NCBI GenBank assembly: GCA_016700135.1
Contig: CP065004.1
Span: 960,001-992,000, forward strand
Length of the DNA: 32,000 bases
From: Candidatus Saccharimonadota bacterium
Lineage (GTDB): Bacteria; Patescibacteriota; Microgenomatia; UBA1406; GWC2-37-13
Direction of reading: 5' to 3'
How positions within the stretch are numbered: the first letter of the stretch is position 1; each line of letters starts with the position of its first letter. The position numbers and the translations under genes are program-made. Shown here piece after piece: positions 1,964 through 25,017 of the stretch. The notes below the pieces were generated by a model that saw only the letters and a list, made by a program, of their open reading frames with translations, ran no database searches and had not been told where the DNA came from.

Positions 1964-1983
1964 ATGGATGCTGAAAGACACTA

Positions 1984-3835: not shown

Positions 3836-4835
3836 ATCGGATTGCTTTGTCAAGATAATGAGTAATAGGTTCCGAATTTCCGACTTTTTTCAGTAAATCT
3901 TCATCGGAGATAATTCGTAACCTTTGAATTTTTTTCCTTTCACGCAGGGTATCCGTGATATTCATAAAGTTCCATAATATACCCTGCACGAGTTCTCCTC
4001 CCGCTCTCAGATCAAACCGAAGCAATATTATGACTGCAAGCACAATCCAGATCCCGACCTGCACAGGTAAAGCATACCAGAGTCTTTTACCCTCAACATT
4101 TTTAATAACTGACCGGATGGTATTCCTGCATCCGCGGTACTTCGGCTGAAGCATGCTGTAATATTTTTTTGTTTTTTCGTAAGTCGGATCATTGTGAAAA
4201 ACGGTGATTGCAGGTTGGTACAGGACAGTGTATCCCGCCAGCCAATTACGGAAACAAAGGTCAGTATCCTCCACCAGCCATTCCATCTTTTCATCAAATC
4301 CTCCGATCCGTTCGAACTGCTTTTTCGGAATGATCATTGCGGCAGATTTTCCCGAAAAAACGAACGCTTCTTTTTCAAACTGGCCGGTATTGATTGCAGC
4401 TTTCGCACGGTCAATCAGAAGATAAAATGGTGTGAGCAATTCTCCCGCACTGTCAAATCTGTTTGAGTGAAAACGGAGAAGTTTGCAGAGCATAATTGCG
4501 TTCGAATTAGTTTTATACAGTTGCGGAACGGTTTCTCCCCAGCCGGGCTGTATTTCGGTATCAGAATCGAGAAAAAACAAATACGTTCCGCTGCTTTTTC
4601 TCACGGCATAGTTGCGTGCTGCGGCAGCTCCTTTTTTTGACTGAAAAGTGTAAAGCGTTATCATTTTCCGTCGTTCATATGTTTTGAGAATTTTCCCGGT
4701 ATCGTCATCTGAGGCATCATCAACCGCAATAATCTCATAGTTTTCCGTTTTTTCCGCAAGCAATGAATCAATGCAGGTTTTGATAAATTGTTCTGCATTT
4801 CTTACTGCGATAATAATTGAAATTTCAGGTTTCAT
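3822..4835 (-). CDS. glycosyltransferase family 2
   Basis: EISIIIAVRNAEQFIKTCIDSL...IIAVDDASDDDTG...LFFLDSDTE, with a C-terminal hydrophobic segment. The ATG at 4835 forms an ATGA overlap with the stop of the upstream gene (4832-4835). The tracked start at 4925 is an over-extension. Confidence 0.8.
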   Translation of the reverse strand: MKPEISIIIAVRNAEQFIKTCIDSLLAEKTENYEIIAVDDASDDDTGKILKTYERRKMITLYTFQSKKGAAAARNYAVRKSSGTYLFFLDSDTEIQPGWGETVPQLYKTNSNAIMLCKLLRFHSNRFDSAGELLTPFYLLIDRAKAAINTGQFEKEAFVFSGKSAAMIIPKKQFERIGGFDEKMEWLVEDTDLCFRNWLAGYTVLYQPAITVFHNDPTYEKTKKYYSMLQPKYRGCRNTIRSVIKNVEGKRLWYALPVQVGIWIVLAVIILLRFDLRAGGELVQGILWNFMNITDTLRERKKIQRLRIISDEDLLKKVGNSEPITHYLDKAIRYVKG

Positions 4836-5800
4836 ATCGGTCGGAATAATCCTACAATACTTCCGGGGATGGCGCCGAGAAGCTCCCGTTTCCCGGTTCT
4901 CATGAAAAGAAATATATAGTAGCAATTCTGTAGTAAAACATTGAAGAGAAACCGTAGTCGGGCTGATGAATCAGTTCTTGAAAGATGTTTTCGATAGAAG
5001 ATAATAAAATTTTGAATACGGTGATATGAGTCGACGCGGACATGAGCTGATTTCTGTACATTGTGAAAGACTTGAGCCTGCGGATTGAATACGTTCGTAT
5101 ACCCGGCTTCAGTGATTTTGCAGGCAACATCTGCTTCATGATATTCGGAAAGTCCCTGAGCAAAGGTGGGATCAAATCCGCCAAACTCTTCAAGAAGTGT
5201 CCGTCGTACGGCAAAGTTACAGGCTTCAAGATTATCAACTGATTTCGGTTCCCCGATTTTTTGAACCGATTCCTCAAAATTGGATCCGAGGGTAAAAGCA
5301 CCGCTACGGGTAAACAGGCTTACTTCCTTCATCTTCCCTTCATAAATAACATCCGTATACAAATACGAAAGAAGCTTCTTCAAAGGATTTGTTGATTTCT
5401 CAAAATCATTCAAAAACGCAAAAAGATCCCGGCCATCCATTAGTTTCTTTTTAATAATCGTGGGACCGGTCACTCCTCCTACCTTTTTATCTTCAAATGA
5501 TGTGAGAATAGCTTTGAGCCAGTTTTTATCAGCCACAATATCATCATCAATTCTGATAAAAATATCATCTTTTGCGTGATTTAAAGCCAGGTTTGCCGCA
5601 TGCAATAATCCCCGTTTCGGCTGAACCAAAAAAAGATAATCTTTGATATATTTTTTCAGAAGTTTTTTAATATGATCGTTGTCCGTGAGTGACACGGCAA
5701 TAACGGAAAAACGCTGATCGGACTGTTCTGACAAACTTTTAAGACAGTTTACCAGTTGTTCAGAATCTCTTGAAATCGGTATGAAGATATTCGCTTTCAT
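4832..5800 (-). CDS. GT2-like glycosyltransferase
   Basis: NIFIPISRDSEQLVNCLKSLSEQSD...IFIRIDDDIVADKNWL has GT-A-like N-terminal topology with a DDD motif. The start forms an ATGA overlap with the upstream gene at 5797-5800. Confidence 0.7.
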   Translation of the reverse strand: MKANIFIPISRDSEQLVNCLKSLSEQSDQRFSVIAVSLTDNDHIKKLLKKYIKDYLFLVQPKRGLLHAANLALNHAKDDIFIRIDDDIVADKNWLKAILTSFEDKKVGGVTGPTIIKKKLMDGRDLFAFLNDFEKSTNPLKKLLSYLYTDVIYEGKMKEVSLFTRSGAFTLGSNFEESVQKIGEPKSVDNLEACNFAVRRTLLEEFGGFDPTFAQGLSEYHEADVACKITEAGYTNVFNPQAQVFHNVQKSAHVRVDSYHRIQNFIIFYRKHLSRTDSSARLRFLFNVLLQNCYYIFLFMRTGKRELLGAIPGSIVGLFRPI

Positions 5801-6936
5801 AAGGCAAGAATGCGAGAATAATAGTTAAAATATTGTACGGCGGTATTCTCAGGATTCCGGCTTTTTGCAAGGTGAATAGTATTTTTGATGAGCATGTCTC
5901 TCAGTTTTCTATCATTGGTAATCATTTCAAATGCATCTGCCCAATGGTTATTATCAATAAGCATGCCGTTTTTCAGATGACTAATGTCTTCTTTCAGGTG
6001 ATCTACATCGGATGCCAAAATACAGGAGTGATATCCTCTTGCCTGATACAAAGGTCCGCTGGAGCCGACATTTATTAATGCAGGATTTATTACTGCATAT
6101 GCTTTTTCGTACAAGAAATCAAGTTCCGATTCGTCAATTATTTCACCGCGAAATTCAATGGCAGGACAGGGAGTAATCAGTTTTTTTATCGATTCAACAT
6201 ATGTTTCCTGACCCCGAATTGTTCCACCTGCAATTATGAACCGGTAGCCGGTATGTTTTTTCTGAAAATCCGAAAAAGCGGAAATCACGGTTTCCAGTCC
6301 TTTTCGCGGTGTGATGTATCCGAAATACAGAAAATACTTCTCAGGATTCCTGTTATGGACTTTCTTTTCGGGAATACATGCCGGAATGACATGGATCTTT
6401 TTTTTAGATACCCGGTATTGTTTTTCAAGTAAATGTACGGCTCTTTCGGTATGACAAACAATACCGTCAGTGGTTAGTCCGATAAACCACAGAATGAAGG
6501 TAAAAAACTTTCTGAGGAAAAACGGTTTTGCGAGAATCGACTTTAGATGAAAGGCAGAAACAAAATCATCGTTCATATTGTCCAAATCCAGGACGGCATG
6601 GATGGTCACAACAACTGGATAACCGAGCATCTTTAAAACGGCAAGAAACAGCGGGAACATGACCGCAGATACTGCTCCTCCGTACATCATAAACTCATGC
6701 TGGAGATGAATAATGTCTGGTTTTGTCTGAAGTATTTTTTTGAGAATCGGAACAAAAAAGAACGGACCTTTTTCCCAAACAGGAAATACGGTTCCGCAGC
6801 CCTGCAGCGTTTTATTTGCCGGATTTTTTTCAGCCGCAACAAAGACCTCTAAGTCGGAATTCCTGGTCAGGGAGTTTGTAAGTATTTGGGTATAATGACC
6901 GAACGGCTGAAGCGTCGAAACAATAAAAACTTTCAT
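5797..6936 (-). CDS. glycosyltransferase, GT-B fold (GT4/GT1 group-1 type)
   Basis: The C-terminal half reads FLYFGYITPRKGLETVISAF...FIIAGG...ELDFLYEKAYAVINPA...GPLYQARGYHSCILASD, which is typical of group-1 glycosyltransferases. It is the first gene of the minus-strand five-gene chain. Confidence 0.75.
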   Translation of the reverse strand: MKVFIVSTLQPFGHYTQILTNSLTRNSDLEVFVAAEKNPANKTLQGCGTVFPVWEKGPFFFVPILKKILQTKPDIIHLQHEFMMYGGAVSAVMFPLFLAVLKMLGYPVVVTIHAVLDLDNMNDDFVSAFHLKSILAKPFFLRKFFTFILWFIGLTTDGIVCHTERAVHLLEKQYRVSKKKIHVIPACIPEKKVHNRNPEKYFLYFGYITPRKGLETVISAFSDFQKKHTGYRFIIAGGTIRGQETYVESIKKLITPCPAIEFRGEIIDESELDFLYEKAYAVINPALINVGSSGPLYQARGYHSCILASDVDHLKEDISHLKNGMLIDNNHWADAFEMITNDRKLRDMLIKNTIHLAKSRNPENTAVQYFNYYSRILAL

Positions 6937-6988
6937 GTGTGGGTTCAGTTATTATACTCCATTTCATATGCGTAGTATAATGATTTCC

Positions 6989-8662
6989 ATGGGCAAAAAA
7001 AAATGGCGCAACAGAGAAAAAAAGATAAAAGAGGATGAAAAACCGAAATCAGAGGAGATGCAGAAAATTGAAAAATACATGTACCCTGCCATTATTACTC
7101 TTCTTGTCCTGATAACATATTTTAACGCATTCAATAACGCATTTGTATCGGACGACATCTATGGTATCGTTAACAATCCGGCGATCGGTCAGTGGAAAAA
7201 TGTGACTTCCCAAATACTTAAATTCTTTCAGCCGCTTCTTTACTTTTTGATTTATCAGATTGATCCCACAAACCCCACATTATTCAGAGTTTTCAACATA
7301 CTTGTTCATATGGGGGTTGCCAACCTTGTTTTCATTTTGGTCAAGCGGTTTGTCAATCCGATGGCTGCGTTTATTGCCGGAGCTTTATTTGCCGTACATC
7401 CGATCCTGGTCGAGTCAGTCTCTTGGATTTCAGGAGGAATTTATTCATGGTATACCTTTTTCTTTTTACTTTCATTCTATTACTATCTCGCAAGGGACCG
7501 TATCACATGGCGATATTACCTTTCCGTTTTTTTCTTCTGGATGTCACTTGTCGTCGGCGTTCCGGCAGTTGTCCTTTCGGGAGTTTTTATCTTGTATGAG
7601 TTGTCATTCGGGAATATTGTCAAAAAATGGATGTGGTCTCTCCCCTATTTTGTCCTGTCCGGCATATATGCCTTCCTCACGCTTAAAGGATACGGGACCC
7701 GGGTCCAATCGCTATCCGCAACCAATAATTCTGCTCCTGAAGTACTCAATCCGATGATACAGGTACCAGTTGCAATTAGTGAATATATCAGACTGTTTTT
7801 GTGGCCGGATTCTCTGACACTGTATCAGTCAGAATTGTCAGCGCCGCCTCTTGAATATACGGTGAGACTGATTGTTTTTCTGACGGTATTCGGTGTGACC
7901 GTTTATTCATTTTTTAAAAATAAACATGTATTTTTCGGGCTTTCGATTTTTTTCCTTGGATTGTTGCCGACTCTTACACCGATTTCCATCGCGTGGGTTG
8001 TTGCGGAGCGGTACGCATATTTCAGTATGATCGGATTGGTATATATTGTCGGATACGGGCTTACACGGATTCATAAACGGTATGACGGCATTGTTTACGG
8101 ACTGCTGGTTCTTGCCATCGTAGCGTTGTCGATCCGCACAATAGTCAGAAACAACGACTGGGACAATGAAGACAATCTTTGGATCGCCACTGTCAAAACG
8201 TCACCTTCGGATCCTAAATCTCACAACAATATGGGTGATGTGTATGCCCGTCACGATGATTTAGAAAATGCCGCCCGGGCATTTAATAATGCCATAAAAC
8301 TCAATCCCGGATATCCGGATGCACACCACAATCTCGGGAATATTTATATGAAGCAGGGAAAAACTGAAGAAGCCGAACAGTTATTTAAAAGAGCCATCGA
8401 ACTCAATCCTGGCCTCTGGCAGCCGCATCAAAATCTCGGAGCAATTTATTACAATCAGGGTAATTATCAAAAAGCGCTAGAAGAAAATTTGACAGTGCTC
8501 AAGATGAATCCCAATCAAGTCAGCGCTTATCTGAATGTCGGAGTGATTTATTTCCAGCTGGGTGAAAAGGAACAGGCACGTAGGTATTTTGAGATAGTTT
8601 TATCAGCCGATCCCAACAACCAAATGGCCCAGCAAGGTATCATTGAATTGAACAAACTCTGA
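6989..8662 (+). CDS. multi-TM GT-C-like glycosyltransferase fused to C-terminal TPR repeats (PMT/TMTC-like)
   Basis: A Lys-rich N-terminus is followed by about 10 hydrophobic helices. The first loop carries NAFVSDDIYGIVNN (DD at 7151-7156). The C-terminus has about four TPR units (NNMGDVYARHDDLENAARAFNNAIKLNPGYPDAHHNLGNIYMKQGK...). I prefer the ATG at 6989 because TATAAT (6976-6981) lies 7 nt upstream. The tracked start at 6935 would overlap the divergent gene's start. Confidence 0.7.
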   Translation: MGKKKWRNREKKIKEDEKPKSEEMQKIEKYMYPAIITLLVLITYFNAFNNAFVSDDIYGIVNNPAIGQWKNVTSQILKFFQPLLYFLIYQIDPTNPTLFRVFNILVHMGVANLVFILVKRFVNPMAAFIAGALFAVHPILVESVSWISGGIYSWYTFFFLLSFYYYLARDRITWRYYLSVFFFWMSLVVGVPAVVLSGVFILYELSFGNIVKKWMWSLPYFVLSGIYAFLTLKGYGTRVQSLSATNNSAPEVLNPMIQVPVAISEYIRLFLWPDSLTLYQSELSAPPLEYTVRLIVFLTVFGVTVYSFFKNKHVFFGLSIFFLGLLPTLTPISIAWVVAERYAYFSMIGLVYIVGYGLTRIHKRYDGIVYGLLVLAIVALSIRTIVRNNDWDNEDNLWIATVKTSPSDPKSHNNMGDVYARHDDLENAARAFNNAIKLNPGYPDAHHNLGNIYMKQGKTEEAEQLFKRAIELNPGLWQPHQNLGAIYYNQGNYQKALEENLTVLKMNPNQVSAYLNVGVIYFQLGEKEQARRYFEIVLSADPNNQMAQQGIIELNKL

Positions 8663-8703
8663 TTGTTGGTATACTGATTATACAATTACATTAGCTCCGC
8701 CTC

Positions 8704-10368
8704 ATGTCACAGATGAAACAAATGTCGGTTGCAATCGGATATCCTCCTCTTTCCTCAAAAAAAGGCGTTCCCCTACTGTCTCAGAACAGGCAGTTTCAGT
8801 ATTTTAATGCTCCCACGTATATTTATCCTATGGTCCCGGCCTATGCTGCTTCCAATCTGAAAAAGCACGGATATCCCGTTTTCTGGATGGACGGCATTGC
8901 CGAAAGAAAGACTGAGACCCAATGGTTTGCGGAACTGAAAGAACATAATCCGGATATTTTCCTTCTCGAAACGAAGTCTCCCGTTGTGAAAAAACACTGG
9001 AAGATCATTGCCAAAATGAAAAAGCTGCTTCCTGACATGAAAATTGTGTTGGTCGGAGACCATCCGAGTTATGTACCTTACGAGCAGTTCGAAAACAGCA
9101 AGGTAGATTATGTCATAAAAGGTGGTGATTATGATTTTGTTTTGGTGAATCTTTTGAATCATCTTGCAAAAGGTGAAAAACTGGAAGGCGGTTTGTACTG
9201 GCGCTCTACTGATAAAAGTATTCAGGCAGACAAGAAAGAAATCCGCAAGCAGAAACTCAAAAACGGCGAAGTAATTTATAATTCAGGACCGCCGTCACTG
9301 AAGCATGACTTAAACAAACTTCCTTTCGTGGATCGGGACCTTACCAAGTGGGAGCTTTATGCCTATGCAAACGGAAATTATAAATATACTCCCGCAACAT
9401 ATATGTACAGCGGAAGGGACTGCTGGTGGAATAAATGCACGTTCTGTGTTTGGGATCATACGATAAATCCGATCGGTTCGTATCGCAGCTTGACTCCGGA
9501 ACGGCTTTTTGCCGAAGTGAAACATGTAGTTGATAATTACGGTGTAAAGGAAATTTTTGATGATGCCGGTACGATGTTTGTCGGAAATAAATTGAAAAAA
9601 TTCTGTGAGCTGATGATCGAGAGCGGCTACAACAAAAAAGTCCGATACGGATGTAATATGAGATTTAATGCCATTCCGAATCAGGAGTTGTATGACCTGA
9701 TGGGAAAAGCAGGTTTCCGGTTCATCCTGTACGGTATGGAATCCGGAAACCAAAAGACGCTGGATCGTCTGGAGAAAGGAACGAAAGAACGCGATGCGAT
9801 CATGGGGCCGGCAATGGCCAGAAAAGCCGGTCTTGATCCGCATGTGACGATCATGCTCGGTTATCCGTGGGAAAGTTACGAAGATGCGAAACGTACCATT
9901 GAGACTGCTAAATTTGCTTTAAAAAAAGGATATTATGAAACCATTCAGGCAACGATCATCATGCCGTATCCCGGCACTCCTCTGTATCGTGAATGTAAAG
10001 AAAATGACTGGCTTCTGACTGATGACTACGAACGGTTTGATATGCGTGAACCGGTGATGAAAATTCCGTTTCCGAAAGAGAAATTACTGGAGCTTGAACA
10101 GGATCTCTACTCTACTTTTATGACACCTCAGTATATCGGACGCAAACTTCTCCGGCTTCGATCGCTGCATGACGTGAAGTATTTGTTTTATATGGCATAC
10201 AAGTTCCTGGGGCATATGCTTGACTTCGATCCGAATCAGACAGAAGTAAAGTTCACATCGCTGAAGTTTTGGCAGAATACCGTCAAACGATTATTCAGTC
10301 ACTTTACTACATCAAAAACGGCTGTTGACGAGGAGAAAGAACGGATTGCGGCAAGTGTGGGAAGATGA
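8704..10368 (+). CDS. B12-binding-domain radical SAM protein (class B-like)
   Basis: The N-terminal Rossmann-like region (IFLLETKSPVVKKHWKIIAKMKKLLPDMKIVLVGDHPS) is typical of cobalamin-binding radical SAM proteins. The cluster motif is CWWNKCTFC at 9421-9447. Downstream elements FILYGMESGNQ and TIMLGYPWE fit a radical SAM core. Alternative ATGs exist at 8713 and 8722. Confidence 0.8.
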   Translation: MSQMKQMSVAIGYPPLSSKKGVPLLSQNRQFQYFNAPTYIYPMVPAYAASNLKKHGYPVFWMDGIAERKTETQWFAELKEHNPDIFLLETKSPVVKKHWKIIAKMKKLLPDMKIVLVGDHPSYVPYEQFENSKVDYVIKGGDYDFVLVNLLNHLAKGEKLEGGLYWRSTDKSIQADKKEIRKQKLKNGEVIYNSGPPSLKHDLNKLPFVDRDLTKWELYAYANGNYKYTPATYMYSGRDCWWNKCTFCVWDHTINPIGSYRSLTPERLFAEVKHVVDNYGVKEIFDDAGTMFVGNKLKKFCELMIESGYNKKVRYGCNMRFNAIPNQELYDLMGKAGFRFILYGMESGNQKTLDRLEKGTKERDAIMGPAMARKAGLDPHVTIMLGYPWESYEDAKRTIETAKFALKKGYYETIQATIIMPYPGTPLYRECKENDWLLTDDYERFDMREPVMKIPFPKEKLLELEQDLYSTFMTPQYIGRKLLRLRSLHDVKYLFYMAYKFLGHMLDFDPNQTEVKFTSLKFWQNTVKRLFSHFTTSKTAVDEEKERIAASVGR

Positions 10369-10430
10369 TTTTTCAGCTCCGAACCTCCCAAGTCGCACAA
10401 AAAATTATATTTTCGCAAGTGCTATGCATC

Positions 10431-11465
10431 TCAGTCTCCATTATTTACTTTAGCGTCCTGGCGGTTTGTTACATTTGTCATTTTCTCTCTCACATACCCC
10501 ACAATAAACCAGAAGCCGTAGGTCACATGCGTGATCGGGATGACGAGTATTGCTCCGAGTGCGATAAGAAGATTTTCCGTCCGCAGATGCGTCTCAAAAA
10601 ATACATATGCTAACAGTCCGCAGTAAAGAAAAAACGGAATTGCAGCTGTGAAAAGATACGGACTTTTCAGTATAAAAAATACAAACAAGACCGCAAGATA
10701 CAAAGTAAAAAAAGCCGGTATGACATACATGAGATGAACCGAGTTTTGATCTCCTTGAGCCGCAAATTTTCCCCTCGTTTTTCCGTAGTTTTTATGCTGT
10801 GCCAGATGACCGGAAAGTGAATCCCTCCTGTGATGAAACACCTGTACGTCAGGGTGATACAAGATAAACTTCTGTTCTTTGACTATGAATTTGTTCAATA
10901 ATTTACTGTCCTCTCCCGGCCAGTGATGATTGTCAAAACCGCCGATACTTGCAAATATTTCTTTCCGAAGCATCAGATTCATTGCCGGATAATCGTCGAC
11001 GAACCGTTTCGGTTGCGGCTGAAAACGGTACACGTATGAGCCGCTTCCTACCCAGGTCCGAAGAACAGCATCAAATATCCTCTCCCAGAATGAGACTTTT
11101 TCTGGAAGTGTCCCGGGTCCTCCCAGTGCGGCAATTTCTGGCTCCTTTTGCAGAATTTTATGTGCCTGAAACAACCATTTCTTTGAAGGATATACGTCGT
11201 CATCGATAAATGCCAACACTTCTCCCTTAGCGTGCTTCGCTGCATAATCACGTTTATCTCCGGGCCTGTTTTTGGCACCGTTAGACAAAATCCGAAGCCA
11301 GGGATACTTCTGTGTTAGTTTCTGATCATCTTGTCCCGTAATATCCGAAACAATGATTACTTCAAATGATGTAAAGGTCTGATTTCCGATTGCAGGGAGT
11401 GTTTCATCGATAAGAATGCCGGATATTTTCCTTGTCGGAATTATTATGGTAAAAAAAAGAGACAT
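10431..11465 (-). CDS. membrane-anchored glycosyltransferase family 2 (GT-A domain plus C-terminal TM helices)
   Basis: FTIIIPTRKISG...FEVIIVSD...VLAFIDDDVYP forms the GT2 core. The last roughly 90 aa are hydrophobic helices (VIPAFFTLYLAVLFVFFIL..., LLIALGAILVIPITHVTYGFWFIVGY). Confidence 0.75.
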   Translation of the reverse strand: MSLFFTIIIPTRKISGILIDETLPAIGNQTFTSFEVIIVSDITGQDDQKLTQKYPWLRILSNGAKNRPGDKRDYAAKHAKGEVLAFIDDDVYPSKKWLFQAHKILQKEPEIAALGGPGTLPEKVSFWERIFDAVLRTWVGSGSYVYRFQPQPKRFVDDYPAMNLMLRKEIFASIGGFDNHHWPGEDSKLLNKFIVKEQKFILYHPDVQVFHHRRDSLSGHLAQHKNYGKTRGKFAAQGDQNSVHLMYVIPAFFTLYLAVLFVFFILKSPYLFTAAIPFFLYCGLLAYVFFETHLRTENLLIALGAILVIPITHVTYGFWFIVGYVREKMTNVTNRQDAKVNNGD

Positions 11466-15290: not shown

Positions 15291-17132
15291 ATGGAACAAA
15301 CCCCCTCTCATACAAAAATAATCGGTCAGATCTTTGACGAAATGACAGGTGCCTTCCAGGAGGAAGTACCTTCCATTTTTCCCCGAAAAGACGTAGATCC
15401 TTATTCAATTTATGAAGAAGGAACACGCTTGGCCGGTGTTGATGTGGTGGATTTACCAGACGGAAGACAGATTCATGTATTCAGCAGTGTTGCAGCTTCA
15501 CCTCATACGCTTTTTCGAGTCCCCTATCAGGATTACGATCTTGATGTGGAAGAAAAAAATGAAGACGGGACAGTGTCTCCCAACCAAAAACGTTTAGAAG
15601 GTTTTAAATCCGTTTTTAAGCGTCATGCTGTTGAAGCGGGATATAGATCCGCTGAACTGGAAGATACACTTGAGAATGAACCGGTTATCATTGAAAAGGA
15701 TGGCCAAAACCAAAGTCCTGAGGCGGTACCTTTGGACATGCTTGTATGGACTATGATCAAAGACACCGACGGAACTCTAAAGCCGATTGATATCAATGAT
15801 TTTGCTTCACCTCTCACAGGAGACCAGCATATCGACAAATTCAGATTACAACTACGTGACGGTAAACTTGAGGAAGTGTACGGTCATGTCATCAAACGTA
15901 TGGATTTGGCAGCAAAAACACTTCTTGAACTTTACAATACGAACGTTCGGGCAGAGATTCCGTTTTTGCCTGAAAAATTTGAGCAGGATCTTCTTCAGGG
16001 AGTGGCCATAGGTTTTTATCGCGGCGATATAACTAAAATGCTCGGGCAATTTAAATTCGACGGATTGGGTAAGGGACCGATGTCGAACTCTTCCACCCAT
16101 TTCCGCACTACAGTCCATCTCGCAATGGACACGATTGATGAATTACGACAACTTCATCACAGAATATCCATGCAGGACGTTATTGATTTTATCCGTTATA
16201 AAGATGTAAACGGCACTCTCACCCGAAGTATCCATTTTGCGGAAAATATCCATATACACGAAACCAAAGACAGCAAAATGAAACGGGCACCCGGTTATAA
16301 ATCAGAGCCTGAGCTTCTCAGAGAACTTATCCAATCTAATAATATACCGCCGATCGAGCTGTTGAAGCTCATTGATCCGTATGCCTCAATTGCGCATGAT
16401 TTGATGTCAGAATGGCTTGCGGAAAAAATCCAGACGGAGTTCGGAGACTATGAAAATACCATTGAACTGTTTGCCCATCATGCAGGTAAAAATGAGCGGG
16501 CAATACGTGCTTCTGAAGGGGTGGAACTTACGCTTGTCTCTCATGAGCCTGAAGTTCGGGAAAAGGCGCTGGCGAGGATTACGCGCATTATCGGTGAATT
16601 TTTCTCACCGATGTGGGAAGATATAAAACTGTATGTACAGGAAAAATTACTAATGTCTCCTGATGAGCAGATTGCAAAGCTGCGGGAAATACAGAATGAA
16701 TACGGTCTTCCTGATAAGGTGATTGTTGCAATACAAAGACTTCTTCCGACAGAAAAACAGATTCAAAACGTTTTTGATTCAACAACCGATGAATCGATGA
16801 AACAAACAATACGATCTATTCAGCAAAAGTATGCACGTCTGAAATCAATTCGGGAAAGTCAGTATGCAGCGTGTAAAGCAAAGATTGATGCAGGACAAGG
16901 TACAACTGAAGATTTAACAAATATGATCAGTGCTCTCCAGACACTCCAACTCTTTAATGACTGGAACGAAGGATACAATATTCCCGGCGTGCCGAGCTTC
17001 GGAATAACATTCCACAAAGATAAAGAAAACAACACTCATGTTTTGCTTGGATGGCTGCTTTCTATGAAAGGACTGGCAGAGCTTTGGCTCGGTGCAATGG
17101 TTATTCGTGAAAAGCGCGATTCAGTCTCATAA
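15291..17132 (+). CDS. hypothetical protein, 613 aa, no recognisable domain
   Basis: A long uninterrupted ORF with protein-like composition and its own extended -10 (TGGTATAAT at 15272-15280). There is no signal peptide and I recognise no catalytic motif. The C-terminus has an amphipathic/hydrophobic segment, VLLGWLLSMKGLAELWLGAMVI. Confidence 0.6.
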   Translation: MEQTPSHTKIIGQIFDEMTGAFQEEVPSIFPRKDVDPYSIYEEGTRLAGVDVVDLPDGRQIHVFSSVAASPHTLFRVPYQDYDLDVEEKNEDGTVSPNQKRLEGFKSVFKRHAVEAGYRSAELEDTLENEPVIIEKDGQNQSPEAVPLDMLVWTMIKDTDGTLKPIDINDFASPLTGDQHIDKFRLQLRDGKLEEVYGHVIKRMDLAAKTLLELYNTNVRAEIPFLPEKFEQDLLQGVAIGFYRGDITKMLGQFKFDGLGKGPMSNSSTHFRTTVHLAMDTIDELRQLHHRISMQDVIDFIRYKDVNGTLTRSIHFAENIHIHETKDSKMKRAPGYKSEPELLRELIQSNNIPPIELLKLIDPYASIAHDLMSEWLAEKIQTEFGDYENTIELFAHHAGKNERAIRASEGVELTLVSHEPEVREKALARITRIIGEFFSPMWEDIKLYVQEKLLMSPDEQIAKLREIQNEYGLPDKVIVAIQRLLPTEKQIQNVFDSTTDESMKQTIRSIQQKYARLKSIRESQYAACKAKIDAGQGTTEDLTNMISALQTLQLFNDWNEGYNIPGVPSFGITFHKDKENNTHVLLGWLLSMKGLAELWLGAMVIREKRDSVS

Positions 17133-19136: not shown

Positions 19137-21167
19137 TTACAAAGCCAATCCGAGGAGGATGAGTACAAACGGTATAAGTACTGCAATCGCTGGATTCATA
19201 CCCGGAGGCTGATCCTCGACTTCCAGTTTGGTCACCGGCGTAGCTGTGGGAGGAGGAGGTACGGGTGTAAATGTCGGTGTCGGCGGAATGGGTGTCGGGG
19301 TAGGAGGCACCGGAGTCGGTGTCGGTGTAAATGACGGTGTAGGTGTCGGTGAATGGGTCGGTGACGGGCTCGGAGTTTCAGAAGGAGAAGGTGACGGTGA
19401 AGGTGTTGGTGTATCTTCCGCCGGCTGTGTCGGTGTCGGAGTAGACTGCGGACAGGTTTGTGTTGCAGGATCGTATCCCGTACTGTTTTCAGAGATGGCA
19501 AAAGCATAACCGCCCGGCCACATTTCACCCGGAGGTACTGTGTTGGATGATTGCACGTTATGACATTCTATCGATTCTACCCCGTTGTTTTCAGTTCTGA
19601 CATCCATCTGGGCAGTCTTACAGGGGGTTTGTTCATACTCAAATGTCATGGATTGTCCGGGCTGCAGGACAATATTCCGCTTTGGCTGGCTGAAGTTTCC
19701 GTCCCATTCTCCCACAAAACAGCTTTCTGCACCGTCAGCGCAGGCGTTATCTCCTCCCTCACAGCGATAACTGCCGCGATACTGTTCTTTCCTTCCTGGT
19801 ACATACGTACATCTGAACAGATCAACTTCGATTTTATCGATAGGTTGTTCCGTACCGTTTTTAATCGTAATTCTATTTGAGTTGTAGGGATCAGGTCCCG
19901 AATCACACTCCAATACGCCGGAACGGTTATCATCATCATCGTCATCGCCTCCTCCGTCAGGAATCGTCATAGTCGGAGGTACGAGTACGATTGATTCATA
20001 GGGCTGGAATGCAATTTGTCTTTGGGCGTCAATAAGGGTAGTTGCACCGCGAATATTCGAATAGGTTTTATAACCTGCATAATTATGTTCAGGCAGCCGG
20101 ACAGTCGGAGTTTCGTCTGACACATTGAGAAGCATACCCATATATTCACCGTTCTTTTCAGTAAGGGTACCCATGATCGGCTTAAAGTTGTACTCAGATA
20201 CAAACGGATTATCCCACGGGTCCCCGTTTCCGCGGAATGCATCCGGCCACACAACTTGAGGACTGACAGCAAGCTGCTTTGCCACCAGTGACATTGTTGT
20301 TTTTTCAGCAACATTCATCGTATCAAAAACACCGCCGTTTACGAACTTTATCGGTGCCTTTTCAGGCTCAGTCTGTACATGGGTCACCATTGCAGAAACG
20401 AGTAATGAAAACCGCTTGATCTGATTCTGTACGATACTGCTCGGCATGGTGATCTCGGATAGTGAAAGCATTGAGTTCGGAGGGTATACTATTTTAGTAC
20501 TCGAATCCCCGCTTATCGATTTTGAAGCATCATACATGGTGTCGAACATTGTTTTGACATAACCCCAAATATTTTCATCACGATTCTCGAATTTGATGCT
20601 GATGGCATTGATAATCGGCGGCGGTGCCCTTTCAAGTAAATCTTTTACCTGTTCTCTTGGCCAGAAGGTAGCGACACCTGCATGAAATAGGATTTTATCG
20701 GGTTTTAATGCCTTTACTTCGTTTGTCTTCGCCACATCAAATGCATTGTAATCCATAAGCTCGACTACTATTTGATCCTGATATTTAGCGTAATAAGCCT
20801 GAACAACCGGAGTCATATTTTCGTAATTTGAGAATGAAAGATACCATTTGAAACCCGCAGTCTGTAAGCTGTCAAATTGGGTGCTTTGTATCATGGCAGC
20901 GGTCGGGTTCTTTATTTTGATGTAGACATTGCCGCCGGGGAAGTAATTTTTAAGCTCCTGAACGGTCGTGTCATTGGTAATATCATTTACCATAACCCCG
21001 AATTTTTGATCTATCGGTCCGCGCTTATCATAAAATTTGAGAGAGATAGTATCGCCTGCCGCTCTTGAGCTTGTCAGCACACGGTACTGCTGTATTGCAA
21101 GTGAAAAGAAGATAACTCCAAGGATAAAAAATGCAATTGAAAACAGTAAATACGCTCGGCGGTGCAT
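19137..21167 (-). CDS. secreted/cell-surface protein A: leader, ~360-aa globular domain, poly-Asp hinge, Cys-containing domain, Pro/Thr/Ser linker, PGMNP motif, C-terminal hydrophobic tail
   Basis: The N-terminus [36 protein letters not shown] has n- and h-regions and an S-R-A site. Also present are DDDDDD at aa 408-413, six or more Cys in aa 420-572, a PT-rich linker at aa ~575-645, and the tail PPGMNPAIAVLIPFVLILLGLAL-stop. TGCTAGACT lies 6 nt upstream of the ATG. Confidence 0.8.
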   Translation of the reverse strand: MHRRAYLLFSIAFFILGVIFFSLAIQQYRVLTSSRAAGDTISLKFYDKRGPIDQKFGVMVNDITNDTTVQELKNYFPGGNVYIKIKNPTAAMIQSTQFDSLQTAGFKWYLSFSNYENMTPVVQAYYAKYQDQIVVELMDYNAFDVAKTNEVKALKPDKILFHAGVATFWPREQVKDLLERAPPPIINAISIKFENRDENIWGYVKTMFDTMYDASKSISGDSSTKIVYPPNSMLSLSEITMPSSIVQNQIKRFSLLVSAMVTHVQTEPEKAPIKFVNGGVFDTMNVAEKTTMSLVAKQLAVSPQVVWPDAFRGNGDPWDNPFVSEYNFKPIMGTLTEKNGEYMGMLLNVSDETPTVRLPEHNYAGYKTYSNIRGATTLIDAQRQIAFQPYESIVLVPPTMTIPDGGGDDDDDDNRSGVLECDSGPDPYNSNRITIKNGTEQPIDKIEVDLFRCTYVPGRKEQYRGSYRCEGGDNACADGAESCFVGEWDGNFSQPKRNIVLQPGQSMTFEYEQTPCKTAQMDVRTENNGVESIECHNVQSSNTVPPGEMWPGGYAFAISENSTGYDPATQTCPQSTPTPTQPAEDTPTPSPSPSPSETPSPSPTHSPTPTPSFTPTPTPVPPTPTPIPPTPTFTPVPPPPTATPVTKLEVEDQPPGMNPAIAVLIPFVLILLGLAL
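19233..19445 (-). repeat. low-complexity Pro/Thr/Ser linker-coding region of protein A
   Basis: It encodes [69 protein letters not shown]. The plus strand is a run of ggtg/ggag/gtcgg-type units and yields Gly/Val-rich shadow ORFs. Confidence 0.85.
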
Positions 21168-21173
21168 ACCATA

Positions 21174-21182
21174 AGTCTAGCA
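21174..21182 (-). promoter_or_regulatory. extended -10 (TGCTAGACT) 6 nt upstream of the surface protein A ATG
   Basis: The minus strand reads TGCTAGACT-TATGGT-ATG. This implies an internal promoter between proteins B and A. Confidence 0.45.
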
Positions 21183-21209
21183 TAGACAGAAAGTAAATGT
21201 AATGAATGA

Positions 21210-22229
21210 TTACATTGCAAGACCAAGCAGTACGAGAGCAAACGGAATCAGGATAGCGAGAATCGGATTGAATCCCGGAGCCTGTTCGTTCACGGTCAGA
21301 TTCTGAACAGGTGTGGCAGTCGGTGCTTCAGCAATTACGACCGGCGTTGGTGCATCCTGTACTATGACTGTCGGGACAGGTGTGTTGCTCGGGACTGGAG
21401 TATCAGTGGGTACCGGTGTATCTGTCGGAACAGGAGTTTCAGACGGAGTAGGTGTCGGCGTTTCTGATGGTGTTGGAGTCGGAGTGTTTGACGGCGTCGG
21501 TGTAGGAGTCTCAGACGGTGTCGGCGTCGGTGAATGTGAAGGAGTGGGAGTAGGTGTCGGGGTCGGTTCATTTGGAGGTGTAGTCGGTGTTGGCTCATTA
21601 GGAGGAGTGGTAGGTGTCGGTTCGTTCGGCGGAGTCGTCGGGGTCGGTTCATTTGGAGGTGTAGTCGGCGTAGGCTGGTCACAGTTGTCGCCGAAACCTT
21701 CGGTACGTCCGGCATGGCTTACTCCCGGTGCATTAATCTGAACATCTACCTGCACCCTACCGCAGCTATTCCAGTTGGGGATGGTAAAATTCCATTCAAA
21801 TGAATTGTTAGTCGCATTCGGGTTTGTATCACTGAGAGAAAGAGACCCTACTGTTGAAGTGTTATGCACATTATCTTTCAGATCATTATCGCTTTCGGTA
21901 CATGATCCGCCGCTGCTTCCTGAACACCAGAACCAGGAAGTGTCATTAATATGATATACTCCTGAAGGACAATTTCCCGGTTCGCAAAGGAGCTGACAGC
22001 CGAATGTAGCTTTTGCGTTTCCGCTCCCGTCAACGTTAATATCTATGACGCTACAGCTGCCGCAGGGTTTATTGGAACCGTCCGCATTACATTGATTGAA
22101 TGTTCCTCCTTCGGCCCGTGAGCTGGTTAATAATTGATATTGAGTAATTGCGAGTGAAAAGAATATCACACCGATCCCGAACAATATCGAGGAGATAATG
22201 ATGTAAATAGTATTCTTTTGCAGTTTCAT
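21210..22229 (-). CDS. secreted/cell-surface protein B (shorter paralog-type): leader, Cys-rich domain, long repetitive Pro/Thr linker, PGFNP motif, C-terminal hydrophobic tail
   Basis: The N-terminus ...[25 protein letters not shown] aligns with protein A. It has 12 Cys in aa 47-183, PTPTTPPNE x4 plus TPTPTPSE and TPVPTD repeats, and the tail [23 protein letters not shown]-stop. Confidence 0.8.
21567..21674 (-). repeat. 4 x 27-bp in-frame tandem repeat encoding PTPTTPPNE
   Basis: Plus-strand units are ggttcatttggaggtgtagtcggtgtt / ggctcattaggaggagtggtaggtgtc / ggttcgttcggcggagtcgtcggggtc / ggttcatttggaggtgtagtcggcgta (phase offset 2 nt from these coordinates). The peptide is identical in all four units, while the DNA of units 2 and 3 differs at synonymous sites. 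Confidence 0.9.
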
Positions 22230-22246: not shown

Positions 22247-22570
22247 TTAGGGTGACATAAAGAACTGTACATAGAGCCAGAAACTTAAGCCACTCAGACA
22301 GAATACAACGGAAACGATCGTAATCAAAATGTATTTATCAACTTTGAGAAAGGATAGCGACGGTTTGTAAACGATTGTTGCGACATGGGGATTGTTTGGA
22401 TCAGTTTTTTGCTTGTTTTCCTGTTTCTTGTCTTCTTTTACAGGTGCTTTTTCTTCTTTCTTTGCCTTTTTTTCTGTTTCCTTTTCCAGTTTCTTAACAT
22501 CGAGCGGAGTACTGTGCTCTTTTTCGGGATTATCCTCAACTTTTTTTACAAAGGGAAGCGTGAATGCCAT
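22247..22570 (-). CDS. small Lys/Glu-rich protein with a single C-terminal TM helix
   Basis: The 107-aa ORF has a charged N-terminal region ([30 protein letters not shown]) followed by [25 protein letters not shown]. It lies 17 nt upstream of protein B on the same strand. The low-complexity composition lowers confidence that it is expressed. Confidence 0.5.
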
Positions 22571-22624: not shown

Positions 22625-23538
22625 TATACCTTCTCCCACCTGATGTGTTGATCTTTTTTCATCAATGTCAGCTGTCGTTTGGCGTATTGCATTTCCTTCG
22701 AGATCCATCGTTCCTTCATTGTCTCCTTGTCTGTACTTCCTTCCAAATATTCGATAACTTGTGCGTACCCGATGGTTCTCATTCCGGGATCCTGCGCCTG
22801 AAATCCACTATCAAGCAGTGTTTTTACTTCATCAATGGCTCCTTGCTGCAGTCTCTTCTCTACTCTTTCCGTAATCCGTACTCTGAGATCTTCTTTATTT
22901 TCGTATATAAAACCGACTAAGGAAAAGTCATTTTCATTCCAAGGTTCATTTGGATTTCCTGCCGATCCGCCTTTCATATGTGTCTCAATCTCAATTTTTC
23001 TGATGAGTCGTTGAGGATTATGTTTTTCGCTGTTATTGAGAGACAAAAACAGATCCGGGTTTTTTTCCCTGAGAATTTTTTGCAGTTCATGAACCGTTTT
23101 TTCGTTAAGTTCAGAACGCAGCGTCTGATCAGGTTCTACCTGGAAATCGGAAGTCCCGTAAAGAAGCTGCTGAATATAGAAAAAAGTACCGCCGACAATA
23201 ATTGGCGTTTTACCCCGCTTTTGGATATCTTCAATGACCTGGGTTGCAAGTCCGACAAATTCAAAAGCAGAAAACGGTTTGTTCGGAGGAAGAATATCAT
23301 ACAGCCAGATCCGTGAACCGGCTTTTAATCCATAGTATCCGATATCCAAACCGTTGTACTGTTTATGCATGATAAATGTCCCGTCGGTCAGATCCAGATC
23401 TTTCCCAGTGATAATGTCAAGTCTCTTGTATATCTGCCTTGAGTCGGCATTGATGAGTTCACCGTCAAGCTTGCGCGCGAGCTCCAGTGCGTAGGCAGTT
23501 TTACCGGTCGCAGTTTGTCCCGTGATAATATGGATCAT
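22624..23538 (-). CDS. miaA: tRNA dimethylallyltransferase
   Basis: It has the P-loop-like IITGQTATGKTAYALELA, DSRQIYKRLDIITGK and GGTFFYIQQLL. The start forms an ATGA overlap with the folD stop (23535-23538). Confidence 0.9.
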   Translation of the reverse strand: MIHIITGQTATGKTAYALELARKLDGELINADSRQIYKRLDIITGKDLDLTDGTFIMHKQYNGLDIGYYGLKAGSRIWLYDILPPNKPFSAFEFVGLATQVIEDIQKRGKTPIIVGGTFFYIQQLLYGTSDFQVEPDQTLRSELNEKTVHELQKILREKNPDLFLSLNNSEKHNPQRLIRKIEIETHMKGGSAGNPNEPWNENDFSLVGFIYENKEDLRVRITERVEKRLQQGAIDEVKTLLDSGFQAQDPGMRTIGYAQVIEYLEGSTDKETMKERWISKEMQYAKRQLTLMKKDQHIRWEKV

Positions 23539-24407
23539 ACCTTGGCTGCTTCAATGACGTTCTTAAAAAGATACAGTACATCAAGCGGACCGAGTCCGCC
23601 GGGGGTCTGGGTATAATAAGATGCGATATTCCGTATTTCCTCTTCATCATAGTCCCCTTTCAGTTTACCGTTTTCTTTTCTGAGACCGACGTTCAGAAGG
23701 ATGACTCCCTCACGGAGATCAGAGGGTGTGATAATCTTTCTTCCCGTAGCGGTGATGATGATATCTGCGGATTTATATGCTTCCTGCGGATCGGGGGTTT
23801 GAGAGTGTGCGACGGTAAATGAAACGCCGATATCTTCCAGTGCTTTTGCAATCGGTGCTCCTCCCGTGATTCCCCGTCCGGCAATGACAATATTCTTATT
23901 CTGCAAAAATTGATAAAAGGAGTCTTTATCCTCGGAAAAATTGACCATAACCTCATGCGGATTATTCTCCCCTGCCTCTCTTGCGATAATATATTTCAGA
24001 CCGCTCAAAACTGCTATGCTGAGAGGAAAGTGAAAAGTCGATTCGGGGTGATGACCTTCGATTTCTTTTTTGGGAGGGATAAGCTGATAGATCTCTTTCG
24101 TGTTATAGCTTTCAGGAAACGGATGCTGAATGATGATTCCCGTCGTTTTCGGATCCCGTGCTTTTTCTGAAACGATGCGTTTGAAATCTTCAGCTGACGG
24201 TTCTTCGGCAAGGTGAACAAGTTCAAACTCCACTCCGATCTTTTCGCCGGTGCGTTTTTTAATATTAACAAATGAAAGTTGTTCGGGCTCAGAACCGACA
24301 AGAATCGTGACCAGTTTGGGAGATATGCCGGAATTTTTTAACGACTGCACTCTTTGAATAAGTTCTTCCTGAAGATGTTGTGCAATTTCGCCACAGGGTA
24401 TATTCAT
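23535..24407 (-). CDS. folD: bifunctional methylenetetrahydrofolate dehydrogenase/cyclohydrolase
   Basis: KLVTILVGSEPEQLSFVNIKKR, VIAGRGITGGAPIAKAL, ADIIITATG and TPGGLGPLDV. The ATG at 24407 (MNIPCGEIA...) lies 6 nt after a TATAAT. The tracked start at 24500 would run through the GC hairpin and into the upstream gene. Confidence 0.9.
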   Translation of the reverse strand: MNIPCGEIAQHLQEELIQRVQSLKNSGISPKLVTILVGSEPEQLSFVNIKKRTGEKIGVEFELVHLAEEPSAEDFKRIVSEKARDPKTTGIIIQHPFPESYNTKEIYQLIPPKKEIEGHHPESTFHFPLSIAVLSGLKYIIAREAGENNPHEVMVNFSEDKDSFYQFLQNKNIVIAGRGITGGAPIAKALEDIGVSFTVAHSQTPDPQEAYKSADIIITATGRKIITPSDLREGVILLNVGLRKENGKLKGDYDEEEIRNIASYYTQTPGGLGPLDVLYLFKNVIEAAKV

Positions 24408-24413
24408 TTGCTT

Positions 24414-24421
24414 ATTATACA
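24414..24421 (-). promoter_or_regulatory. -10 box (TGTATAAT) 6 nt upstream of the folD ATG
   Basis: The minus strand reads CTGTATAAT-AAGCAA-ATG, located just downstream of the GC hairpin. Confidence 0.45.
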
Positions 24422-24438
24422 GAAACTTTTGGGGTGTC

Positions 24439-24464
24439 GGGCGGGCGCAGAAATGCGCCCGCCC
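24439..24464 (-). terminator. perfect GC-rich hairpin between the acidic orphan and folD (terminator-like, no U-tract)
   Basis: GGGCGGGCGCA-GAAA-TGCGCCCGCCC has an 11-bp stem (10 of 11 pairs are G:C) with a GNRA-type loop. It lies 17 nt after the stop at 24482. No T-run follows on either strand, so an intrinsic-terminator function is uncertain. Confidence 0.45.
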
Positions 24465-24481
24465 TATCACCGTGTACTTGA

Positions 24482-24880
24482 CTAAAGATGTTCGCGCCAA
24501 TCGTAGCCCAGGAGCTCTATGGCTCGTTCAGTCGTTATGGGCGACCTCTCGCTGAAGACTGACTCGAATTCATCCGACCAGCCTCCCATGTACTCCACGT
24601 ATGCCCAAATTTCATTCAGGGCTTCATACACTGATGGTTGTGCTGACGCGCGGAGCAGTTTCACGAGAATTTCAGACGGAATGCTCATCCATGAGACCCA
24701 TCTCTCTTCTTCATTCTCACTATTACCTTCGGAGAGAACAATATACAGTTGGTTGTCCCCTGCAAGGCGAGTTGCAGCACATTCATTTTCGGATTTCACA
24801 ATGAGTACATCATCGTCTTTCACTGCACTTGCGAAGTGCACAAAGCTTGTGTCTGCGTTGTTGAGTTTGTGGATACTCAT
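24482..24880 (-). CDS. hypothetical small acidic protein (132 aa from the ATG at 24880)
   Basis: The ATG at 24880 is preceded by AAGAAAGAGGAGAGC (a GGAG Shine-Dalgarno). The translation is protein-like, with 24 Asp+Glu against 10 Lys+Arg by my count. The opposite-strand ORF (24519..24977) is Ser-rich and looks like a shadow frame. I recognise no family. Confidence 0.5.
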   Translation of the reverse strand: MSIHKLNNADTSFVHFASAVKDDDVLIVKSENECAATRLAGDNQLYIVLSEGNSENEEERWVSWMSIPSEILVKLLRASAQPSVYEALNEIWAYVEYMGGWSDEFESVFSERSPITTERAIELLGYDWREHL

Positions 24881-25017
24881 GCTCTCCTCTTTCTTGCAAA
24901 GTACTACAGCTTTTACGATTTGTGTACAGAAAGAACCCAAGCATATGGGCTGCTCTGATCCACAGGAGATATTATAGCCTATTTTCGGGGCTAAATCAAT
25001 ATTATAGGATAATTTTC

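Follow-up and report, generated by a model that had tools for sequence, protein, structure and literature searches.

The envelopes of Patescibacteria (CPR bacteria, from "candidate phyla radiation") are almost uncharacterised, and most of these lineages are uncultured. The described systems closest to the case reported here attach secreted proteins through the C terminus and include the LPXTG signals of sortases, in which a short motif ending in Gly precedes a hydrophobic helix, and the PGF-CTERM signal of archaeosortase A, which is carried by major envelope proteins. A sortase family has been reported to be nearly ubiquitous in Microgenomates (PMC6744442), and a closed Microgenomates genome encodes a sortase together with complete peptidoglycan synthesis (PMC7143001); from this literature, sortase is a candidate enzyme in the lineage. 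Here, we describe two adjacent genes, A and B, in a 32,000-nucleotide stretch (hereafter, the window) of contig CP065004.1 from Candidatus Saccharimonadota bacterium (assembly GCA_016700135.1, positions 960,001 to 992,000), whose products end in related tails consisting of a short motif, a hydrophobic helix, and the stop codon. Comparison with related tails indicates that this element most likely descends from an LPXTG-type sorting signal, from which it would have diverged by losing the charged end and, in the clade of the window, by drifting to (E/D)Q(P/A)PG. To the full reading, that the anchoring module of A and B is LPXTG-derived and still handled by the sortase of the lineage, we assign a probability of roughly 45%.

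Both open reading frames (ORFs) lie on the minus strand, A at positions 19137 to 21167 (676 amino acids [aa]) and B at positions 21210 to 22229 (339 aa) in the ORF listing. An earlier reading of the sequence alone (i.e., the original prediction) had reported that the two proteins share a leader and a tail, and both peptides were found exactly as described. BLASTP of A against B yielded two significant segments only: 37 aa of the leader with 59% identity (E, 2e-10) and 71 aa of linker and tail with 52% identity (E, 7e-16). The A tail (19137..19229, minus strand) reads KLEVEDQPPG-MNPAIAVLIPFVLILLGLAL before a TAA stop and combines the motif L-x-V-x-(D/E/N)-Q-x-P-G with a 20-residue uncharged helix; the B tail (21210..21302, minus strand), also closed by TAA, is modeled by AlphaFold2 (AF2) as a helix at residues 322 to 338. 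In both, the motif (DQPPG in A and EQAPG in B) is followed by 20 uncharged, mostly hydrophobic residues that are helical in the AF2 models. The module is real, and, as had been proposed, selection acts on its peptide: the last 31 codons of the two genes are identical at 59 of 93 nucleotides, and 15 of the last 22 residues are identical, 10 of them with different codons, so that conservation concerns the peptide rather than the DNA. Within the window, a degenerate codon pattern derived from the tail occurs only in the A and B tails (0.00 occurrences expected from 100 shuffles).

Related tails were collected from several sources. The search with B recovered proteins from Roizmanbacteria, Gottesmanbacteria, and the "Patescibacteria group" with differing bodies and related tails. 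A hidden Markov model (HMM) of the tail alone gave a single match (E, 0.69) against a set of 5.8 billion proteins, which is insignificant, given the shortness and compositional bias of the tail; this profile was replaced by degenerate-codon DNA scans. Scanning 185,579 GTDB species genomes identified 55 stretches, approximately the chance expectation, of which about 30 are genuine tails in about 18 Roizmanbacteria-like metagenome-assembled genomes (MAGs) and the rest are junk ORFs in other phyla. A second, "PW"-anchored pattern detected 41 loci with genuine tails in JGI metagenomes. The metagenome scan also returned an unrelated family of membrane proteins of 73 to 87 aa (L090, L110, and L132), which match the tail pattern by convergence and end in ...(R/W)PWLLL(F/L)(V/I)P(G/S)LP(L/I)VLG(I/F)F(L/F/V)-stop. 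The resulting set comprised 72 unique tails, and Roizmanbacteria-like Microgenomates are the source of every one of them.

When 17 tails were aligned, three positions proved invariant: the Gly of "PG", a Pro 10 residues farther on, and a Gly at the fourth residue from the end; the motif Gly, the mid-helix Pro(-11), and Gly(-4) are the invariants of the core family. From the motif Gly to the end there are 20 to 21 residues in the core family and 24 to 26 in the most distant, LPXTG-like relatives. By motif, the 72 tails fall into 49 of the xQxPG class, 18 of the [LIVMP]P.[TSA]G class, and 5 others. L-x-V-x-(D/E/N)-Q-x-P-G is nearly invariant over the 49 tails; Roizmanbacteria keep Q-x-P-G, together with the upstream L-x-V, almost without variation, and across all lineages the Gly alone is invariant. 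The Phe or Met that had been predicted to follow PG is not fixed, as this position is occupied by I, F, M, L, G, V, or S over the 72 tails. The reported absence of basic residues after the helix extends beyond the window: none of the 72 tails, those of the core family included, ends in a basic cluster, and at least the last 18 residues are uncharged in every tail. The tail ends at a stop codon in all cases (TAA, 30; TAG, 8; TGA, 4), and TGA is also an ordinary stop of the housekeeping genes in the window; these stop codons are genuine, and recoding or readthrough concealing a basic tail was rejected.

The tails co-vary by genome, with 70.5% identity within and 52.5% between genomes (permutation p, ~2e-4); paralogs in the window clade are all of the "NP" type, and those elsewhere are of the "TPW" type. 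Recent gene conversion as the source of this similarity was rejected on the basis of the low nucleotide identity (approximately 60 to 70% between tails and 62 to 63% for the window pair) and the different codons used for most identical residues.

The tail is restricted to a single genomic slot. According to tblastn with the housekeeping proteins of the window, every GTDB locus with a genuine tail is situated between miaA and lepA, and all loci with enough flanking sequence (23 GTDB and 32 metagenome loci, i.e., ~55) have the tail in this slot, with none demonstrably elsewhere; nine metagenome loci were too short to be placed. The gene order is L7/L12-GyrB-PPase-GyrA-FolD-MiaA-[slot]-LepA-PK (PPase, pyrophosphatase; PK, pyruvate kinase), and this synteny is kept in lineages whose LepA proteins are only ~68% identical. 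The slot holds one to four tandem tail-bearing genes, in most cases together with the gene for a small conserved membrane protein. The bodies of the tail proteins show 30 to 40% identity for the A type and 35 to 65% for the B type; further body types exist, among them a weakly GH28-like one in L001. A 940-kb contig of Roizmanbacteria UBA1450 contains three tail matches, all in the slot. Because copies of the tail (two in the window and one to four per genome elsewhere) occur on unrelated bodies yet always in tandem in this one slot, the tail is not a genome-wide sorting signal, contrary to what had been envisaged. The original prediction had also staked its validity on other proteins carrying the tail: related genomes do encode such proteins, although only as positional paralogs and orthologs.

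The closest public DNA is that of the MAG contigs CAZDDM010000028.1 and CAYMVU010000002.1 (A, 98% and 91% identical; LepA, 98% and 93%, respectively), and the LepA proteins of the window and of Candidatus Roizmanbacteria UBA1450 share 91% identity, which places the window in a Roizmanbacteria-like member of the Microgenomates. An exact lookup of B in public assemblies gave no record. Slots of the CPR type with Roizmanbacteria-like LepA and GyrA were also found in records labeled "Weeksellaceae" (JBGSBR01; L007 and L039) and in "uncultured Gammaproteobacteria" third-party annotation (TPA) records (L011, L015, L034, L035, L038, L040, L041, L049, L055, L056, and L059). Given this slot and these proteins, the organism labels look wrong and would reflect mislabeled bins or contaminating contigs.

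The connection to sortase signals emerged from the relatives of the B body, which were found by exhaustive HMMER searches and whose C termini were compared with the tail motif. P0141 ends in LPVTG-DIPPW-YIFAIPALIIILGVAL, P0147 in LPPTG..., P0137 in LPQSG-VPAP...GLAF, P0140 in IVPSG..., and P0134 and P0149 in PPVSG...PW...; the end of P0139 (TPKTG...KKYWA) is the only basic tail among the B-body relatives. Further tails carry IPSAG-(K/R)..PW (L046 and P0030), PPVTG (P0018), and LPEAG or LPQSG (P0046 and P0095). P0141 is homologous to P0005 (PPVSG; E, 1e-26), and the neighbors on its 2-kb contig, which does not reach miaA or lepA, resemble the L002 slot by eye. One leader group contains both P0137 (LPQSG) and P0136 (KQPPG). 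Since these LPXTG-like motifs occupy the same place, the invariant Gly is positionally equivalent to the Gly of LPXTG. The tail is thus most likely LPXTG-derived: at the invariant Gly, distant orthologs encoded in this slot have LPVTG, LPPTG, LPQSG, IPSAG, or PPV(S/T)G. Against LPXTG_anchor (TIGR01167), tails of distant orthologs scored 14.0, 13.6, and 9.9 bits (cutoff, 15.9), and EF0750_LPXTG and Microco_LAVTG also surfaced for variant tails just below the cutoff; models of sortase signals were the only NCBIfam families to surface for any of these tails. A control, the LPKTG tail of P0120 with its basic residues, scored 19.9 bits and passed. Of the predicted sorting signal, therefore, the part that stands is a real, selected, and modular element that lies behind a leader and stalk and is tied to a known signal class; its assignment to the PGF type is not supported, and its informative relatives are LPXTG-like.

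On this basis, A and B would be two of the one to four secreted cell-envelope proteins encoded in the miaA-lepA slot of Roizmanbacteria-like Microgenomates, with a common layout of a Sec-type leader, a variable functional head, a probably O-glycosylated and wall-spanning Pro/Thr stalk, and the conserved C-terminal anchoring module. After Sec export, the tail helix would keep the precursor in the membrane, where the housekeeping sortase of the lineage would recognize the juxtamembrane motif and cut beside the invariant Gly, and the stalked protein would be moved onto peptidoglycan precursors. The co-variation of tails by genome counts in favor of this reading, as it is expected if a shared trans-acting partner, be it an enzyme or a membrane protein, recognizes them.

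Several observations weigh against this sequence of events. The window tails did not match any sorting-signal HMM of NCBIfam or Pfam even at E values of ≤10, and no LPXTG-like pentapeptide is present in them: EDQPPG and NEQAPG are without the Leu-Pro and Thr of LPXTG. To our knowledge, Pro at the presumed P1 position is without precedent for sortases. A positively charged tail is a defining part of sortase signals and is absent from all members of the core family. Sortase substrates do not typically have a helix that is conserved in sequence and has an exact C-terminal end; these features instead suggest intramembrane recognition or helix packing, and one to four clients per genome at one locus are unusual for a housekeeping sortase. 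Finally, inspection of ~65 slot loci revealed no sortase gene within ~4 to 10 kb of a tail gene.

A real, if tentative, possibility is that the tail is a permanent membrane anchor, which descends from an LPXTG signal that is no longer processed and in which the Pro, the Gly, and the exact length serve the packing of the helices with each other or with a small membrane protein. Such an anchor would account for the degenerate pentapeptide of the window clade, from which the Leu-Pro and Thr residues have been lost, as well as for the missing basic tail and HMM match. It also fits the strong conservation inside the helix, rather than in the cleavage motif only, and the exact end; moreover, confinement to one locus fits a dedicated membrane complex, and C-terminal transmembrane (TM) anchors have been described on other secreted CPR envelope proteins, namely the Pam pilus chaperones (10.64898/2026.03.03.709456). 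A small protein with a single TM helix is conserved beside the B-type genes: in the window, the gene directly upstream of B (22247..22570, minus strand) encodes a 107-aa protein that has a Lys-rich N-terminal region and, toward the C terminus, its only TM helix, and many genomes have this gene in the same position relative to that of the B type. With tblastn, it was found in L001, L010, L015, L022, L030, L035, and L042 and in ~19 metagenome loci. It belongs to no Pfam or NCBIfam family, has the motif F(I/V)KKVE..EK.H.TP(L/I)D.KKL, ends in ...GLGFWIYVNYFMS and thus, like the tails, without charged residues, and contains a Lys/Glu-rich insertion of ~26 aa in the window clade. This protein is a possible membrane partner of the tail proteins, not an enzyme. 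However, the near-invariance of L-x-V-x-(D/E/N)-Q-x-P-G over 49 tails exceeds the needs of a plain anchor, topology is poorly determined by a stop-transfer helix that lacks positive charge on the cytoplasmic side, and orthologs retain canonical LPVTG or LPPTG.

It is less likely, and in our estimate doubtful, that the tail belongs to an undescribed CPR sorting or anchoring system, with the signature xQxPG-(T/N)P(W)-...P...G-x3-COOH, that is recognized in the membrane by a non-sortase enzyme or by the co-encoded single-TM protein. The charge-less, length-exact C terminus would then be the key feature, and the slot would encode the principal S-layer-like glycoproteins of Roizmanbacteria.

The assignment originally favored, a PGF-CTERM-like or other signal of the exosortase, archaeosortase, rhombosortase, or CPBP type that is cut by a non-sortase intramembrane enzyme, now appears very unlikely. 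In its favor, the B tail literally reads PGF; the Thr/Pro stalk, motif, and helix resemble those of archaeal S-layer glycoproteins; and conserved residues inside the helix are more typical of signals for intramembrane proteases than of those for sortases, as illustrated by the conserved DP inside the helix of JDVT-CTERM (10.1101/2023.06.07.544157). Nevertheless, TIGR04126 and all other CTERM models, including the PEP-CTERM, GlyGly-CTERM, and MYXO-type models of NCBIfam, gave no match at E values of ≤10 with either the full proteins or the isolated tails; PG is followed by a variable residue, an Arg/Lys cluster is lacking, and the orthologous motifs are LPXTG-like and not PGF- or PEP-like. As first noted for sortase, exosortase, and rhomboid-type genes, Pfam annotation of the window revealed no gene of the sortase, exosortase, rhomboid, or CPBP family, and the same was true of the annotated flanks of L001 to L004 and L060 to L067; the other slot loci showed the same housekeeping neighbors only. 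The sortase signature TLxTC was in none of the fetched loci. In the literature searched, nothing joined LPXTG with Microgenomates, Roizmanbacteria and sortase occurred together only in an unrelated preprint, the top-ranked papers on exosortase or archaeosortase and CPR contained neither enzyme name, and envelope proteins are not a topic of the Roizmanbacteria genome paper. Least credible of all is that the shared ends have no function and simply date from a recent tandem duplication or from gene conversion among neighboring paralogs: the genes are adjacent and their tails are more alike within than between genomes, but synonymous sites are saturated (10 of 15 identical residues with different codons and a nucleotide identity of 62 to 63%), the same residues are invariant across lineages whose LepA proteins are ~66 to 70% identical, and the bodies are unrelated folds.

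The remainder of A supports a secreted envelope protein with a leader, a GH30-like TIM barrel plus beta-sandwich, a Cys-rich beta domain, a Pro/Thr stalk, and the tail. Its leader (residues 1 to 36; 21060..21167, minus strand) has a basic n-region and a hydrophobic helix of ~20 aa followed by QQYRVLTSSRA; the AF2 model places a helix at residues 2 to 27, and Ala36 is invariant across the A family. The B leader (residues 1 to 39; 22113..22229, minus strand), matched to that of A by BLASTP, has an Ala39 that is nearly invariant across the B family. Both leaders present, by inspection, the basic n-region, hydrophobic core, and conserved S/T-R/K-A site of a signal peptide. The A leader is accordingly described here as a putative Sec signal peptide that may be cleaved at S-R-A, or else as a signal anchor.

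The A body (residues ~40 to 400; 19968..21050, minus strand) is predicted by AF2 and Foldseek to be a (beta/alpha)8 barrel with a beta-sandwich similar to GH30 and clan GH-A. In the AF2 model of A (pLDDT, 74.7), the barrel and sandwich span residues 40 to 400, further strands span residues 419 to 561, and the tail helix spans residues 659 to 675. Foldseek against PDB matched GH30 xylanases (E, 3e-11 to 1e-7; TM-score of 0.57 to XynC) as well as other clan GH-A or GH13 enzymes at 8 to 10% identity; with Pfam, no family exceeded the threshold for the body, the SusG_C match being subthreshold only. We therefore consider the head to have a GH30-like glycosidase fold and make no claim about catalytic competence. 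Homologs of A are rare (10 only, among 5.8e9 proteins). The C-terminal Cys-rich beta domain (residues ~415 to 572; 19452..19925, minus strand) contains the motif C-x3-Q-x-D-V and stands alone in a 534-aa protein of L056. The Pro/Thr/Ser stalk (residues ~573 to 646; 19230..19451, minus strand), read from the translation, has a pLDDT of <50 and includes short-period repeats at 19311 to 19363.

B (a secreted envelope protein as well) combines its leader with a Cys-rich Ig/FN3-like beta-sandwich, a Pro/Thr stalk, and the tail. The AF2 model shows eight strands over residues 56 to 179 (pLDDT of ~90 there), with weak Ig-like matches as the only structural neighbors, and the leader plus body are represented by only 29 cluster representatives among 1.84e9 proteins. 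The stalk (residues ~186 to 309; 21303..21674, minus strand) comprises tandem repeats of PTPTTPPNE (four copies) and TPTPTPSE-like units (four copies), detected by Tandem Repeats Finder at 21556 to 21668 (27 bp, 4.2 copies) and 21436 to 21530 (24 bp, 4 copies). With ~73 aa in A and ~124 aa in B, the stalks agree with the linkers of 70 to 120 aa described before. A homologous Cys-containing domain in front of them, also claimed before, was rejected as demonstrable homology: BLASTP returned an E value of 11, and hhalign aligned only an 18-column segment around C-x3-Q-x-D-V (E, 0.057; probability, ~1%; not significant), leaving this short motif alone in common. Since the heads of A and B are unrelated folds, the shared ends are modular. 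P0131 (618 aa) has an A-type GH30-like body without stalk and tail and terminates in NGDDDLQILINNFGRNVLPG, which is dockerin-like by eye; head and anchoring module are thus separable.

The surroundings of the two genes conform to the bacterial context noted originally. According to Pfam, the surface-protein genes are followed by those for the 107-aa membrane protein, MiaA, FolD, GyrA, an RDD protein, pyrophosphatase, GyrB, L7/L12, and L10, and a metabolic block encodes PfkB, AdoHcy hydrolase, pyruvate kinase, the 613-aa protein described below, and LepA. A scan of the slot for promoters and terminators yielded nothing informative. Positions 1 to 11465 constitute a glycosyltransferase cluster with seven GT2/GT4 genes, a C-methyltransferase fragment, and a methyltransferase; it also contains a 575-aa membrane/TPR protein (6935 to 8662) with an unannotated N-terminal part of ~420 aa and C-terminal TPR repeats and a B12-binding radical-SAM protein (8704 to 10368). 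This cluster is a hypothetical source of glycans for the Pro/Thr stalks of the two surface proteins. In another CPR lineage, P0046, the distant B relative with the LPEAG tail, is encoded in a different operon (L060, 7209 to 15222; JGI Ga0326864_10000662) together with MurJ, PilN-like, and PilO proteins, a 90-aa protein, a 441-aa Big_13 protein with an MPVAG-plus-TM tail, a UbiA prenyltransferase, and two PMT-family glycosyltransferases. This arrangement suggests a surface-glycoprotein assembly cluster, and the window glycosyltransferase cluster and the UbiA and PMT genes flanking P0046 fit glycosylated stalks.

Three further features of these loci deserve mention. The 613-aa protein (15291 to 17132, plus strand) belongs to no Pfam or NCBIfam family and is encoded between lepA and pyk in many Roizmanbacteria-like loci (32 to 91% identity); in L001 it is split into ORFs of 422 and 153 aa. 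In the same JGI contig, gyrB (285 to 2212) is represented by three ORFs of 362, 64, and 189 aa, compared with a single 642-aa gene in the window, which could reflect an assembly frameshift or an interrupted gene. A 152-aa ORF without a family (24482 to 24940, minus strand) overlaps the TTG-started FolD ORF (23535 to 24500, minus strand) by 19 nucleotides; because homology to FolD begins at about residue 15 to 30 of the listed ORF, the true start is probably downstream of the listed TTG.

These results define a conserved slot for envelope proteins in Roizmanbacteria and provide a sequence definition of the anchoring module used there, no description of which was found in the literature and model libraries searched. 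The module is linked to sortase-type signals and yet breaks two textbook rules, having no charged tail and, in the window clade, no LPXT. If a sortase still processes the tails, current LPXTG models miss sortase substrates across much of the bacterial tree, and the known specificity of sortases would broaden; if not, the case illustrates the decay of a sorting signal to a dedicated membrane anchor. With either outcome, the tail is a convenient marker for surface-exposed proteins in this group of organisms, a GH30-like enzyme among them.

Among described systems, the head of A alone recalls the GH30 glucuronoxylanases (e.g., Bacillus subtilis XynC; PDB 3KL0), with which it shares a (beta/alpha)8 barrel with an attached beta-sandwich (E values down to 3e-11; TM-score, ~0.57), whereas it differs in its sequence (8 to 10% identity), the lack of a Pfam match, and a catalytic Glu pair that was not identified. 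PGF-CTERM/archaeosortase A substrates resemble A and B in being major envelope proteins with a Thr/Pro-rich, probably glycosylated stalk, a Pro-Gly motif, and a terminal helix; in contrast, the tails described here match no such HMM, do not conserve the Phe, have no basic cluster, and come from a bacterial (CPR) host, with no archaeosortase seen in the window or the slot flanks examined. With the PEP-CTERM/exosortase, GlyGly-CTERM/rhombosortase, and MYXO-, JDVT-, Synerg-, and CGP-CTERM/myxosortase systems, they have in common the placement of a motif and TM helix at the extreme C terminus of unrelated carriers, and the conserved residue in the helix recalls the DP of JDVT-CTERM; however, they have no Arg cluster, invariant Cys, or model match and very few clients per genome. 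Judged by the features of tripartite signals compiled by Haft (10.1101/2023.06.07.544157), the basic cluster is missing and the copy number and signature residues are marginal, and the C-terminal location, the signal peptide (by inspection), the hydrophobic segment, and the unrelated carriers are all present. From LPXTG/sortase signals (TIGR01167; class A/E-type), the tail differs in its uncharged end, its sequence-conserved helix (Pro at -11, Gly at -4, and a fixed length), its motif (E/D/N)Q(P/A/K)PG, in which Pro replaces Thr before Gly, its model scores below the cutoff, and its one to four clients per genome at a single locus; nevertheless, as in those signals, a short motif ending in Gly is followed by a hydrophobic helix at the C terminus, preceded in the protein by a signal peptide and a wall-spanning stalk of Pro/Thr.

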